A stretch of DNA of 64,000 bases from Candidatus Borrarchaeum weybense (GCA_019057385.1 JAHQJS010000004.1:1201068-1265067), one strand, 5' to 3'. Positions 12,544 to 18,913 are shown, counted from the first letter of the stretch. The notes: generated from the sequence alone by a model not told the origin. Made by a program: numbers and translations.

Positions 12544-12792
12544 TTACTTGAAAAGCCAATCTTCTCTTTTCTTTTTCATATGAGTCTCCAAGACAGTCTT
12601 TGTATGAATGTCTCCTACTGTTTCAAAAACCATGTGTGACTGAAGGGGTTTTTTTCTAGCTGGTTCAAATCCCTGAACTGGGCACAGTTCTATTGGTGTT
12701 TTAGCTAGAACTTTATGTTCAAAACAATCGCCTTTGACTTCATCTACTGGTTTGTAGTATTTACAATCCCTACAAATGAACTCTTCACGCAT
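12544..12792 (-). CDS. Small Cys-rich protein resembling glycyl-radical enzyme small FeS subunits (BssC/AssC/HpdC-like)
   Basis: CRDCKYYKPVDEVKGDC...CP four-Cys pattern; the original SD (GGAGAGGAAGGGAAATG) lies beyond the insertion at 13125-13142. Confidence 0.5.
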   Translation of the reverse strand: MREEFICRDCKYYKPVDEVKGDCFEHKVLAKTPIELCPVQGFEPARKKPLQSHMVFETVGDIHTKTVLETHMKKKREDWLFK

Positions 12793-13134
12793 TTCCCTTA
12801 GGGAAGCGCCTGCCCTTTAGGGTGGGGAAGAATTGAGGGTGTTTTTCACTTTTATTAGGGCCTCTCCACTTTTAAATACGTGTTCTGAGATAGAGGTACG
12901 TGGTCTAAAGGCACACCTCTCATAGAAGTGGAAATGGTTAATGACCTCAAGGATGAGGAGCAGTAAACTGGTATAGCCCGACTCTATATGAGGATTACTG
13001 GGCTGGGCTGCGGTAAACACGCCCATGTGTTAGCGTGCGATGAGGTTGAAACTCTTTTGCAAAGAAGAGGACTGAGACCAAGCACAGCTAAAAGCCTCAC
13101 TGCTTTAGCGTGAGGTAGTTTACGCATTTCCCTT
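12787..13134. repeat. 13-bp direct repeat ACGCATTTCCCTT at both junctions of the element
   Basis: Exact copies at 12787-12799 and 13122-13134. Confidence 0.95.
12789..13123 (+). mobile_element. Non-autonomous IS200/IS605-type element carrying a TnpB-type omegaRNA only
   Basis: Left hairpin CCTGCCCTTTAGGGTGGGG-AAGAATTG; right end AAGCCTCACTGCTTTAGCGTGAGGTAGTTTAC; internal GGGCTGCGGTAAACACGCCC; TATA TTTAAATA 12871-12878; no credible protein. Confidence 0.8.
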
Positions 13135-13322
13135 CCTCTCCTTTTATCAAATGAAATCGGAATCTTTCACAACGTCATTATATCGATTTATTCATGCAAG
13201 ATTAGTTGTTATTGTATCACTATAATATATTTTCATGATATAAAATATTTTGTATGAGTTTTTTGACGAAAACTATTAATCCTTAAAACAATTAAGATAA
13301 TGTTCTAAAATGGTCTTAGGAG

Positions 13323-15372: not shown

Positions 15373-15545
15373 ATTCGAAACTTCCGCAAGAACGGTATTT
15401 AGTTATTCTAATTTTGATTCATAGATTTAAAGCTTTATATTTTTAAGATTTCTGAGATTTTTATCCGCTTTTGTAGAGGATAAACATTAATATCGGGATG
15501 TTTTATTTCAAATGATCTAAAAGGTTTAGTAACATCTTGATAAGA

Positions 15546-15875
15546 TCATTTTAGAATCCTTTTCCATTTTGGTAAGTCTCTTTGTCTGTATTTTTCAATT
15601 ACCTTTATTAAGACCGCTTCGAGATCAATATTTCTCTTATTTGCCAAAGATATCAGTACAAATAGTAGATCACCAATTTCTAATTCTAATTCCGCTTCAA
15701 AATTGATGTGCGAATCTTCTTTTGCTATAGGACGAAATCCTTTTAGGCGCTGCAAAACGTGTGCAATTTCACCTAATTCTTCTATCATTCGAGCTAAGAT
15801 AATGGGATCTTCCCAGTATCCTCCTATTTCATTGATAAATTCATCAACGATTTTTTGAAGTTCTCGTAATTCCAA
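15546..15875 (-). CDS. MazG-like nucleotide pyrophosphohydrolase (YpjD-like)
   Basis: ARMIEELGEIA...ELEIGDLLFVL. Confidence 0.85.
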   Translation of the reverse strand: MELRELQKIVDEFINEIGGYWEDPIILARMIEELGEIAHVLQRLKGFRPIAKEDSHINFEAELELEIGDLLFVLISLANKRNIDLEAVLIKVIEKYRQRDLPKWKRILK

Positions 15876-16091
15876 TGGTCTTCCCTCATCAGTGATATAT
15901 TGAAAAAATGTAATTTTTTAATCTTATTTTGTAAGAATTTATCTAGTAACAAAACTCCTTTTCTGAGTTCCTCTATCAGATCTCAAGGGATGGATATGAA
16001 CGCAATCAGATCTCTTACTGAAGTAATTCTCACAAAATATAAAAATAATGATTGTGGTGCTTTTACTAAGTAACGAAGCGAAGTGATATCC

Positions 16092-16580
16092 ATGAGGATT
16101 GAGTTACCAGGTAAAAACTGCGAAAACTGCGGTAAATGCGTTATTCTATGCCCAGATAATCTTTATGTCGTTGACCTGACCACAGAAAAAGCGGTAATAG
16201 CTGATGATACCGTTTTTAATGAATTAGAAGATCGTATAAGTGGCGCCTTACTTACATTAATTAAGGAGCAAATACATAGTGATGGAAAAGTTACCGATGA
16301 TGAAAAAGCGCTCCTAGGTGTTATCACACGTAGTTTCTCAACGTTTAGTAATATGAGAAAAGTCGCGGAGCCAATTCTATTTTCAGCAAAAAAATATCTC
16401 TTCAAAAAAATCTGGGAAGAAGCAATAAAGGACGATGTCATTAGCGAAGATGAGCAAGCAATACTTGACATCATGGTTGATAAATTAAAAATCGCCCCAA
16501 ATGAAAAAGAACAATTCATTTCGGAAGTTGAAGCCGAAGCGGCAGCTATTAAGAAGTTAAAGCAAAAATTGGCAAAGTAG
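16092..16580 (+). CDS. 4Fe-4S motif protein with TerB-like acidic repeats
   Basis: CENCGKCVILCP; DGKVTDDEKALL and DDVISEDEQAIL repeats. Confidence 0.6.
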   Translation: MRIELPGKNCENCGKCVILCPDNLYVVDLTTEKAVIADDTVFNELEDRISGALLTLIKEQIHSDGKVTDDEKALLGVITRSFSTFSNMRKVAEPILFSAKKYLFKKIWEEAIKDDVISEDEQAILDIMVDKLKIAPNEKEQFISEVEAEAAAIKKLKQKLAK

Positions 16581-16764
16581 GTTTTCACCATAATTATTTA
16601 TAACAAGCCTTCCTTTTTGATTTTAAAACTTACCTTTTTACTGAGATTACTGTTCTAGTGGATTTTTTTAGTTTTTACGCGTCTTTTAATTTTATAGGGG
16701 TCATGTTTGTTCACTTTCTTCACAGATCCAAAATTCTCGATAGGAATATCTAAATCAGTTAGGT

Positions 16765-17095
16765 GTGAACTACCACCTAACGAGTGAGGTGGCTTCTGTC
16801 CTCCTAGACTGTTCTGCTTAGCCAACACGGTTGGACACATGCAGCCTAGTCATCGACAGTTCGGGCTGGTCAACGGCAGCCCCCGTCCCTCAAGGGACAC
16901 TTGAGGTCCGACAGTACCCTCATCGGTACTGTGTCTTGTGTACGCCCTTCACGCTAAGCCAGACACCTTGGATACCGCATATTTTTATTGTAATTAACTG
17001 CTATTTAAGTTGAAGGAGACCTGTGTGAAAGTGAAACAAGTAAAAGACGCAATTCATCCCCCCAACAAGTTAGGAGGTCTTCTTGCGGTAGATCT
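16765..17095 (-). mobile_element. Non-autonomous IS200/IS605-type element carrying a TnpB-type omegaRNA only; TAM TTTAT
   Basis: Minus strand: TTTAT|AGATCTACCGCAAGAAGACCTCCTAACTTGTTGGGGGGATGAATTG ... TTAAATA (17002-08) ... GGGCTGCCGTTGACCAGCCC ... GAAGCCACCTCACTCGTTAGGTGGTAGTTCAC; junctions supported by an intact paralogous site at 17159-17186. Confidence 0.88.
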
Positions 17096-17158
17096 ATAAA
17101 TTGTAGAAAGACCTTTCGTCAACGGTGATGCCTCCTTTTATGAAGGAAGATTTATCCA

Positions 17159-17186
17159 CAGTTAGGTATAAAATATAGAAAGACCT
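17159..17186 (+). promoter_or_regulatory. TATA-containing 28-bp unit, intact copy of the site split by the element
   Basis: CAGTTAGGTATAAAataTAGAAAGACCT versus split copy CAGTTAGGT (16756-64) + ATAAAttgTAGAAAGACCT (17096-17114); about 40 bp upstream of ATG 17209. Confidence 0.75.
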
Positions 17187-17208
17187 CACATAAGTAGTGG
17201 TGAAAAAT

Positions 17209-17844
17209 ATGCCTTTACAACCATTCACAAGGAATTTTAAAGATGAAAGTACACATACAGGATTTCAGTTTACATTTTATTGCGACAATTGTGGCGACGG
17301 CTACAAAACAAAATTCATAGAGTCAAAATCCTACAAGAAGAAAGGCCTTCTAAGAAAACTTTCAAAGGCAGTCTCAACTGCAGGCCGTTTTACTGGAACT
17401 GGGTCATTTAGTCTTGGATATGGATATGAAAGTTATCCGCCTGCATGGCATAAAGAGCACGAAAAAGCTTTTGAAAAAGGCTGGAACGAAGCCATAGAAC
17501 ATTTCCATAAATGTCCGAACTGTGGTAAACATGTCGATGACAACTGCTGGAATGGCCAGACGGATCTTTGCACAAAATGTTCCCCAAGAGAAGCAATAGA
17601 AGTAGCTGTAGCAAGATCGGATAAAATGAGGACAGATATAAGGGCAAAGGCTGCCCAGACTGAAGTATTTACTGGAGAAGTCGATAAAAGAACGACATTA
17701 TGTCCAGAGTGCGGTCAACCTGCTGGCGAAGGCAAATTCTGTAGCGAATGTGGTGCCCCTCTCGCACAAATCCAATGTCCCAATTGTGGAACACCGCTTA
17801 AACCTGGCACAAAGTTCTGCAACGAATGTGGAAAGAAACTCTGA
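17209..17844 (+). CDS. Multi zinc-ribbon (double zinc ribbon) protein
   Basis: GFQFTFYCDNCG and repeated CxxCG...KFCxECG units. Confidence 0.85.
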   Translation: MPLQPFTRNFKDESTHTGFQFTFYCDNCGDGYKTKFIESKSYKKKGLLRKLSKAVSTAGRFTGTGSFSLGYGYESYPPAWHKEHEKAFEKGWNEAIEHFHKCPNCGKHVDDNCWNGQTDLCTKCSPREAIEVAVARSDKMRTDIRAKAAQTEVFTGEVDKRTTLCPECGQPAGEGKFCSECGAPLAQIQCPNCGTPLKPGTKFCNECGKKL

Positions 17845-17926
17845 AAAAAACGTCTTAGCATCGTTTAAAAGAATAGTACAAAATTTGTACTGTTATCACC
17901 CCCTAATTTTTTCTTTCTTAAAATAA

Positions 17927-18913
17927 TTATTCTCCTTTTTCCAATATGACAGACGTCTTTGGGTACGGAATTTCTATGTCTTTATCTGTTAATGCGTTTT
18001 TAATGTTTGCCAGCATTCTGCTCTCGGTTTCGAAAAGTCCTCCTGCCTTAGTTGTATCCACAAAAACCTTTGCTTCCATATTAACAGAAGATTCGCCAAA
18101 TTTTGTTATGACTACCTCTATCGGAGTAAAATAGCCCTGACCATCTATTCCTTCTTTTGCTGTAGCAGGGTCATTTCTCAGAACTTCTTGTATAATTTTT
18201 ATGGCTTTCGATACGTCTGACTCGTAAGATATATTAATCTTATGAAAAAGTCTTCTTAACCGGTGCTCTGAATAATTAACTATTGCTTCCTTATCAACCA
18301 TCGAATTAGGCAGGTTAATTGGAGTATTGTCAGGCGCAACTATAGTTATTGAACGCAAACTCATAGTCCTAACTGTGCCTACTATGTTTTTCCCTTTAAG
18401 GTGAATCCAATCTCCGATCTTGAACGGCTTGTCAAGTATGAGGGATACCCCAGAGATGAAGTTAGAAAATGTCTGCTGCGCAGCAAGCCCCAAAACGATA
18501 CCTGCAAAACCTGCACCGACTAATAAGCCCTGAATAATTCCAACAAGTTCAAATACTCCTAAAGTCCATATAACAGCTACGACTAAAATACTGATTTTAA
18601 TCAGGTTTTTGATTAACATACTTACTCTGAGAGGTATGTCCTTAACCCGTTCTATCACTTTGATATAAACTTCTATACTTAGTCTTACAACGTACACTGC
18701 GCCAATCCATATAATTGCTATCAGTACCAATTGAGCCATGAAAGGATTGTTTGTACTGAACAGCACCCAATAAGAATTGAGGTTGTATCGCAACACAAGA
18801 AAGATCAAAATCGCTAAGATAACGATTATTGGAATCAACTTACGGCTTAATATGCCGCCTACAGTCTCTCGTACGTTATAGTTCTTTATTTTCTTAATTT
18901 CTATCTCCTCCAA
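17927..18913 (-). CDS. mscS: Small-conductance mechanosensitive channel MscS
   Basis: GLAAQQTFSNFISG...KPFKIGDWI, LPNS, FGESSVN. Confidence 0.92.
   Translation of the reverse strand: MEEIEIKKIKNYNVRETVGGILSRKLIPIIVILAILIFLVLRYNLNSYWVLFSTNNPFMAQLVLIAIIWIGAVYVVRLSIEVYIKVIERVKDIPLRVSMLIKNLIKISILVVAVIWTLGVFELVGIIQGLLVGAGFAGIVLGLAAQQTFSNFISGVSLILDKPFKIGDWIHLKGKNIVGTVRTMSLRSITIVAPDNTPINLPNSMVDKEAIVNYSEHRLRRLFHKINISYESDVSKAIKIIQEVLRNDPATAKEGIDGQGYFTPIEVVITKFGESSVNMEAKVFVDTTKAGGLFETESRMLANIKNALTDKDIEIPYPKTSVILEKGE

Follow-up and report, generated by a model that had tools for sequence, protein, structure and literature searches.

A 331-bp mobile element that carries an omegaRNA interrupts one of two copies of the core promoter of a zinc-ribbon protein gene in the Asgard archaeon Candidatus Borrarchaeum weybense. 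The element occupies positions 16765-17095 on the minus strand of the 64,000-nucleotide stretch analyzed here (GCA_019057385.1 JAHQJS010000004.1:1201068-1265067; hereafter the window, with positions counted from its first letter). It is a non-autonomous, protein-less member of the IS200/IS605 family of insertion sequences (IS), of the kind known as palindrome-associated transposable elements (PATEs) or miniature inverted-repeat transposable elements (MITEs). Next to a copy of the element's transposon-adjacent motif (TAM), TTTAT, the guide of its RNA matches the second, intact promoter copy over nine nucleotides, and a sequence-only reading of the window had taken this match as the mark of a candidate cis RNA-guided repressor. 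The account that we favor, with a probability of about 0.8, is that a PATE sits in a duplicated promoter and that the guide match is a by-product of descent and not of evolved targeting. The length of the match, 9 nt, is set by the end of the duplicated patch, which at that point meets DNA derived from a second transposon (Y). TAM and seed, 14 matched bases in all, make up the conserved core promoter itself, so any working promoter copy would match the guide. Together, the duplication junction and the conservation of the core promoter indicate that the match was inherited and not selected.

An omegaRNA-bearing element and its ends

The element stands out as a GC-richer block that is overlapped only by chance open reading frames (ORFs) of 60-61 amino acids and that holds neither a transposase nor a TnpB gene. 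Five full copies (80-90% identical) and one truncated copy are found in the genome, with more in three congeners. When nine copies from the genome and these congeners were aligned, similarity ran as far as ...GGTAGTTCAC and then gave way to complete divergence, the flank being different for every copy. At the opposite end, TTTAT directly precedes the element in 6/6 copies that have this left end. The same ~90-nt left end recurs at ~45 loci of the genome, nearly all of them preceded by TTTAT, and ~20 of these loci continue into a same-strand TnpB ORF of 390-410 or ~490 amino acids. The tnpB genes read from the TTTAT side toward the ...GTTCAC side, which places the window element on the minus strand with its left end at 17095 and its right end at 16765. 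Both ends have subterminal palindromes, and the arms of the left-end palindrome and the terminal hairpin of the right end co-vary among the copies. A natural empty allele (L061 and L062, described below) locates the insertion exactly 3' of TTTAT, without target duplication. Across the genome (G000) there are ~80 right ends of one superfamily, recognized by the terminal hairpin plus TAGTTCAC, and ~45 common left ends with the TAM TTTAT.

The RNA part of the element was recognized by homology and by its fold. A profile search with nhmmer scored the five genome copies of the scaffold at E values of 1e-65 to 1e-72, and five TnpB loci, including loci of the ~490-aa TnpBs, have 3' ends homologous to the last ~145 nt of the element. 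The consensus scaffold folds with 41 pairs, nine of which show compensatory double changes, and has GAACUGUCGAUGA, GAGGNCAGAAG and UAGUUCAC as invariant single-stranded motifs. A scan of positions 15500-18500 against Rfam, with E up to 1, matched no family. A TATA-like motif reads ACTTAAATAG in eight of the nine aligned copies and ACTAAAAAG in L005; the corresponding box of the window element is presumed to drive transcription of the omegaRNA and, in full-length relatives, of tnpB. For the guide, a length of 16 nt was assumed from characterized TnpBs, and its first 13 nt after TTTAT match the empty allele L061. Just past guide base 13 the window has ~22 extra bases (CAAAATTCTCGATAGGAATATC; window 16737-16758 compared with L061:2930-2951), one more small indel in a hot spot. 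RNA run X19, which consists of contigs only, has two 151-nt contigs on the zinc-ribbon gene and zero on the element. In the predicted fold of 16745-16790 (minus strand), the first 7-8 guide bases (ACCUAAC) can pair with GUUAGGUG in the terminal hairpin of the scaffold, and when the guide is included in the folding this pairing displaces the canonical terminal hairpin in the predicted minimum-free-energy structure. The 5' arm of that hairpin reads CCACCUAACUU in other copies, which is nearly equal to the window guide; the resemblance is probably a coincidence.

Proteins that could serve the element are encoded elsewhere in the genome. The ORFs linked to the common left end are TnpBs by their Pfam matches (Cas12f1-like_TNB and OrfB_IS605) and by hits in the PDB to ISDra2 TnpB. 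At least 12 intact TnpBs of 394-411 amino acids and two of ~490 amino acids have the left end and the terminal hairpin plus TAGTTCAC in common with the element. In an alignment, the candidate partners retain the motifs GIDLG (D), IG.P(D/E)K and DRD.NAA, and they look catalytically intact. The 489-aa TnpB (L025:1521-2990, minus strand) was considered as a possible nuclease-dead protein and this was rejected, since it has D in IGCPDK where its paralogue has E (IGHPEK) at the aligned RuvC-II position. The genome has one Y1 TnpA gene, with an intact PF01797 match (G000:C7:194221-194586). A Y1 TnpA is thus available in trans for the element, and its recognition of the element's ends is putative.

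The duplicated promoter and its natural alleles

Removal of 16765-17095 joins CAGTTAGGT (16756-16764) to ATAAAttgTAGAAAGACCT (17096-17114, which reads ATAAATTGTAGAAAGACCT in the window). The uninterrupted copy CAGTTAGGTATAAAataTAGAAAGACCT (that is, CAGTTAGGTATAAAATATAGAAAGACCT) at 17159-17186 is identical to this reconstituted site at 25 of 28 positions. On the minus strand the copy presents TTTAT at 17172-17168 and then ACCTAACTG at 17167-17159, the first 9 nt beyond the right end of the element. The resulting 14-mer, TTTATACCTAACTG, is unique in the 4.18-Mb genome and lies 394 bp from that right end. When the reconstituted site was aligned locally with the region downstream, the score was 53, compared with 23.7 +/- 4.2 and a maximum of 41 in 1000 shuffles, and the flanks of the repeat have no significant similarity (386 and 98 of 1000 shuffles reached their scores). 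In the interrupted 28-nt copy the final four bases, ACCT (17111-17114), may be the tip of the second transposon rather than promoter, in which case the securely duplicated host sequence amounts to 24 nt (CAGTTAGGT plus ATAAATTGTAGAAAG).

Copy 2 (17159-17186) is very likely a working, conserved core promoter, with a TFB recognition element (BRE) and TATA box ~41 nt ahead of the ATG at 17209. All relatives compared retain the heptamer GTATAAA at its distance from the ATG, and the core promoter CAGTTAGGTATAAA is kept 14/14 in an element-free species (L067/L068/L070) that is ~85% identical overall and has different surroundings. A GGTGA motif lies 6 nt ahead of the ATG, and the zinc-ribbon protein belongs to a 20-member protein cluster in metagenome-assembled genomes of Asgard archaea.

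Alleles of the locus were collected from contigs of members of the protein's 90% cluster and fall into four types. Type E (L061, from GCA_019058535.1, and L062) is empty. Its flanks are ~95% identical to those of the window and its synteny is kept (selD, integrase, MazG, a 162-aa gene and the zinc-ribbon gene), and it has a single promoter, ...AATCAGTTAGGTATAAATTGTAGAAAGACCTCACATAAATAGTGGTGAAAAATATG, without element and without spacer. Both contigs read CAGTTAGGTATAAATTGTAGAAAGACCT, identical at 28/28 positions to the reconstituted site of the window, and by BLAST the window differs from type E by a 422-nt insertion at 16737-17158. Type W is the arrangement of the window, and contig pieces of run X3, from a different study, extend unbroken from the left end through the copy-1 half and the spacer to copy 2. 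In type S (L053/L054; gene 98.6% identical) the element is reduced to a left-end remnant and has lost its omegaRNA part, and in its place are 115 nt, among them a diverged repeat of 3'-terminal sequence from the upstream 162-aa gene (L053:537-651, soil metagenome). The copy-1 half, the spacer and copy 2 are all present there, and copy 2 reads TTG as copy 1 does. Relative to the window, L053 is 93.7% identical in the upstream gene and 98.6% identical in the zinc-ribbon gene, a contrast that suggests recombination between lineages at the locus. Type T (L063-L066; 97.3% identical) comprises contigs that start inside the element, so that scaffold and guide lie outside them. These contigs run through the left end and ATAAATTGTAGAAAG into ~265 nt of Y, then into a homologue of the window's 41-nt stretch 17118-17158, and finally into a remodelled copy 2 in which TAM and seed are both changed and small extra duplications have appeared.

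Only allele types W, S and T, each with the element or a remnant of it, were seen to have the second promoter copy. More distant relatives (L067/L068/L070 and the G004 type) have a single promoter. The G004 type (L055-L060) has other upstream genes and keeps GTATAAAATAT and a 46-nt spacing to the ATG. Four of its contigs (L055-L058:2935-2960) show a 12-nt tandem repeat of the TATA region, ATGTATAAAAAA ATGTATAAAATA, from which it follows that small TATA-region duplications at the zinc-ribbon promoter also arise without a transposon nearby. The P0003 allele, with a 228-nt intergenic region, is probably another empty allele.

Transposon Y accounts for the sequence between the two copies. In L063:225-560 it includes the C-terminus of a tnpB with a C..C...ADRD..AA.NI motif, its own omegaRNA and a right end ...ATGAAAGGAACGGT, and the Y family has ten right ends in the genome and a TnpB of ~550 amino acids. 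In L063-L066 the Y right end abuts promoter sequence, CTTTCTACAATTTAT, which is the predicted Y guide. Within the window spacer, 17111-17117 is likely the tip of a Y right end, and the following 41 nt (17118-17158) are homologous to the part that adjoins Y's left end and resemble Y left ends such as ...TATGGACAAATCTTGCC. Judged by these sequence comparisons, the window spacer derives by deletion from that of type T. None of the three allele types seen combines an intact Y omegaRNA with an unaltered copy 2. The possibility that ACCTAACTG of copy 2 is itself the tip of a Y left end was rejected, as the empty allele and the element-free species have ACCTAACTGATTT in place.

All that the sequence-only reading had stated about the sequence is borne out by these comparisons. 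The junctions that it placed at either side of 16765-17095 agree with the boundaries of the nine copies and with the 28/28 match of the empty allele, and its TAM, TTTAT on the minus strand, is backed by all six element copies with this left end, nearly all left-end loci and the insertion point in the empty allele. Its omegaRNA cassette gains from the multiple copies, from scaffold homology to TnpB 3' ends and from the compensatory pairs. The uninterrupted repeat that it pointed out is read in the sequence and exceeds the shuffles, with the proviso on its last four bases given above; the coordinates of the guide and of its TTTAT plus 9-nt match (17172-17159) were confirmed, with a 14-mer unique in the genome. 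That the TATA-like box is the promoter of the gene at ATG 17209 is very likely, given the conservation from GTATAAA to the ATG and the GGTGA Shine-Dalgarno motif. The search among relatives for empty alleles and single-copy promoters, which it had proposed, found L061 and L062.

How the guide match arose and what it may do

In the history that we propose, the element would have inserted 3' of the TAM TTTAT within the BRE/TATA core of the zinc-ribbon promoter, without target duplication, and its guide would be, as in every such element, plain DNA adjoining the right end. Y and the element would have disrupted the promoter, in either order. A break or rearrangement near the left end of Y may then have been repaired on the template of an empty allele, so that 24 nt of promoter were copied in before the ends rejoined, and this patch would have restored BRE/TATA at its native distance from the gene. 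The outcome would be a doubled core promoter in which copy 1 holds the element, intact copy 2 adjoins the gene 44-48 nt further on and the Y stump lies between them. Patch repair is the most likely origin of copy 2, a step that we infer. In an alternative order of events, the duplicate would have come first and the element would have landed in a redundant copy, where it would be neutral. A simple ~72-bp tandem duplication of the promoter and the start of the gene was rejected, as the flanks beyond the repeat are not alike and the spacer is IS-derived. The role of the omegaRNA is probably the one customary for such RNAs. Once loaded in trans by a TnpB encoded elsewhere, it would cut the emptied donor site and so keep the element in place; that site would offer TTTAT and a guide match of 13 nt or more, and nine matched bases would be too few.

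The repressor proposed in the sequence-only reading fares less well than its coordinates did. The match belongs to an inherited duplication, ends at an IS remnant, coincides with the core promoter and is not kept in the sister allele types. That reading had also offered a fallback, that the match is the by-product of a prior promoter duplication. By-product is the better reading, and only "prior" goes beyond the alleles, since the duplication was seen only on element- or remnant-bearing ones.

Several points nevertheless weigh against inheritance as the whole story. Among 80 guides of the right-end superfamily, 14 have a TTTAT+9 match in the genome, and only that of the window adjoins its own element (394 bp, the next being at 31.6 kb). 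The position of this match is exactly that of BRE/TATA, so that TnpB bound there should obstruct TBP/TFB, and binding without cutting at 9-10 matched bases has precedent (10.1101/2023.11.30.569447; PMC13507860). A regulatory side effect of the guide match, with putative omegaRNA expression and TnpB loading, is an unlikely addition to the favored history. The closest full-length scaffolds are just ~73% identical to that of the element over the last 140 nt. Five left-end copies did not resolve the TAM and exact left end of Y, which makes the insertion point of Y and self-targeting by its guide a matter of conjecture. Finally, the order of events and the mechanism of duplication are inferred from four allele types, three of them occupied and one empty.

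The rival with most to recommend it is repression in cis, in which TnpB from elsewhere and the omegaRNA would form a 9-bp partial R-loop at 17167-17159, leave the DNA uncut, occupy BRE/TATA and lower transcription of the zinc-ribbon gene. The cassette would then be a transposon-borne, still mobile forerunner of TldR-type regulators. The intact TAM and 9-nt seed cover TATA and BRE exactly, the genome has related TnpB genes that look intact and whose terminal hairpin and left end match, and a TATA-like box of the element's own precedes the scaffold. Studies of related systems lend this rival some support: natural TldRs repress promoters through 9-11-nt guides with a ~6-nt seed (10.1101/2023.11.30.569447), ISDge10 TnpB, given a 10-nt guide, engages its target DNA and makes no double-strand breaks (PMC13507860), and ISDra2 TnpB reads about the first 12 bp (PMC13639567). 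Binding of copy 2 without cutting is on these grounds physically plausible, if improbable. Against repression, duplication and promoter conservation already explain the match, and the pairing is not kept in sister alleles: L053/L054 have the promoter but not the omegaRNA, and in L063-L066, whose scaffold and guide were unseen, copy 2 has a mutated TAM and seed. The 13 other superfamily matches lie at least 31.6 kb away or on another contig, and TTTAT+9 sites for 14/80 guides look like tolerated noise in an AT-rich genome. The other four genome copies of the element have no TTTAT+9 match, and a nearby target copy as a systematic trait of the family was rejected on these counts (0/4 copies; 13 distant matches). 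Unlike TldRs, the TnpBs of the genome keep their acidic RuvC residues and sit in mobile elements; unlike a truncated guide, the window guide continues past position 9 into mismatches; and in silico the free RNA pairs its first eight guide bases with the scaffold. We consider cis repression doubtful for these reasons. The more specific proposal of a natural "short-match" repressor, a still-mobile cassette left with TAM plus 9 nt after duplication whose nuclease-competent trans TnpB would bind BRE/TATA uncut, is a shade more doubtful.

Cleavage would be a different consequence of the same match. Here TnpB-omegaRNA would cut copy 2 as it would an empty donor site, leading to gene conversion or homing, with small rearrangements as scars. 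The locus is indeed unusually rearranged, L063-L066 showing mini-duplications and a remodelled copy 2, and copy 2 of L053/L054 is identical to copy 1 (TTG instead of ATA), which resembles gene conversion. In the ancestral arrangement the Y guide (CTTTCTACAATTTAT...) would match copy 2 over 15 nt, and that an intact Y omegaRNA and an intact copy 2 are never seen on the same allele type adds an anecdotal point. Yet a 9-nt match falls short of the ~12 bp needed in characterized TnpBs (PMC13639567, PMC13507860), the window and L053/L054 both have an intact copy 2, and the targeting by Y is conjecture while its TAM is not resolved. Cleavage is therefore quite improbable. That the repeat is a chance similarity or an assembly artifact is hardly credible. 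The region is AT-rich, repeated elements often break assemblies, and Logan contig L052 of the likely source run, identical to the window and so no independent witness, ends inside the element; but the 25/28 identity, an alignment score far above 1000 shuffles and a 14-mer unique in the genome speak against chance, and the left end, copy-1 half, spacer and copy 2 recur in independent assemblies (L053/L054, L063-L066 and the run X3 pieces). Descent through a duplicated promoter thus remains the preferred explanation of the match.

Known systems and features of the locus

The element type is already known, and the window supplies an Asgard example. Like the omegaRNA-bearing PATEs and MITEs of IS200/IS605 in Haloquadratum walsbyi (PMC3119063) and Geobacillus stearothermophilus (PMC10055086), the window element is multi-copy and lacks a protein gene, has ends with subterminal palindromes in common with TnpB-bearing elements, uses a fixed TAM without target duplication and carries an omegaRNA that requires a TnpB encoded elsewhere, here putative. 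It differs from them in its Asgard host and in the archaeal TATA-like box of its own that is fused to the scaffold, and the window copy differs further in lying inside BRE/TATA, where the TAM TTTAT is the TATA core, beside a second copy of its own target. As in donor-site recognition by TnpB-omegaRNA, the guide is the right-end flank, and TAM plus guide recreate the emptied donor site (13 nt in L061). The nearby match in the window is instead a duplicate truncated to 9 nt, which should escape cutting. With TldRs (10.1101/2023.11.30.569447; 10.64898/2026.09.22.753285) the window has in common a TAM-flanked 9-nt match (9-11 nt in TldRs) over the promoter of a neighboring gene. TldRs, however, are nuclease-dead, domesticated and immobile and have conserved guide-target pairs, whereas the candidate proteins here appear to keep the acidic residues of the catalytic site, the RNA is part of a multi-copy mobile element with both ends intact, and the guide-target pair is not conserved in the sister alleles (L053/L054 and L063-L066, the latter with scaffold and guide unseen). 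Guide-length switching of ISDge10 (PMC13507860) offers a parallel in the engagement of DNA through ~10 matched bases without double-strand breaks. That system was engineered and operates in human cells with a truncated guide and fusion to activators; the window has a full-length natural guide with mismatches after base 9.

The locus provides a population-resolved omegaRNA PATE in which a natural empty allele fixes the TAM, both junctions and the guide, and this should be of use for the annotation of Asgard genomes and for the choice of archaeal TnpB/omegaRNA pairs. As the TTTAT TAM overlaps the core of the archaeal TATA box, this element family can land in promoters, and such hits may be frequent. 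Since a guide of this kind will match whatever copies of its insertion site arise later, a regulatory reading of a match to a neighboring site calls first for an empty allele and a check for duplication. Should the repression reading be true, the window would hold a natural intermediate between a homing guide and a TldR-like RNA-guided transcription factor, an archaeal first step. The features of the locus are collected below.

Table 1. Features of the element and the zinc-ribbon promoter, in window coordinates
Feature	Position	Strand	Basis or remark
Guide region ACCTAACTGATTTAGA (guide ACCTAACTGATTTAG...)	16749..16764	-	Flank directly 3' of the right end
omegaRNA scaffold and right end, ~204 nt, ending ...GCCACCTCACTCGTTAGGTGGTAGTTCAC	16765..16968	-	nhmmer profile, copy alignment
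Element-internal TATA-like box CTTAAATAG	17001..17009	-	~30 nt upstream of the conserved scaffold start
Left end, with subterminal palindrome 17058-17077 (CCTCCTAAC..GTTGGGGGG)	17010..17095	-	Left end common to ~45 loci
TAM of insertion, TTTAT (plus strand ATAAA)	17096..17100	-	TTTAT preceding left ends; empty allele
Promoter copy 1, right half ATAAATTGTAGAAAG	17096..17110	+	Joined with CAGTTAGGT (16756-16764), equals the single promoter of L061/L062
Spacer, stump of second TnpB transposon Y	17111..17158	-	Alleles L063-L066; Y ends in the genome
Promoter copy 2, intact, BRE/TATA region of the zinc-ribbon gene	17159..17186	+	TAM 17172-17168 and guide match 17167-17159 (minus strand)
Zinc-ribbon protein gene, 211 aa	17209..17844	+	Pfam Zn_ribbon_3 and DZR; Shine-Dalgarno GGTGA 17198-17202

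Elsewhere in the window, at 12784-13143 on the plus strand, lies a second omegaRNA cassette of another family, with a right end ...GTGAGGTAGTTT and the 13-mer ACGCATTTCCCTT at both of its junctions.

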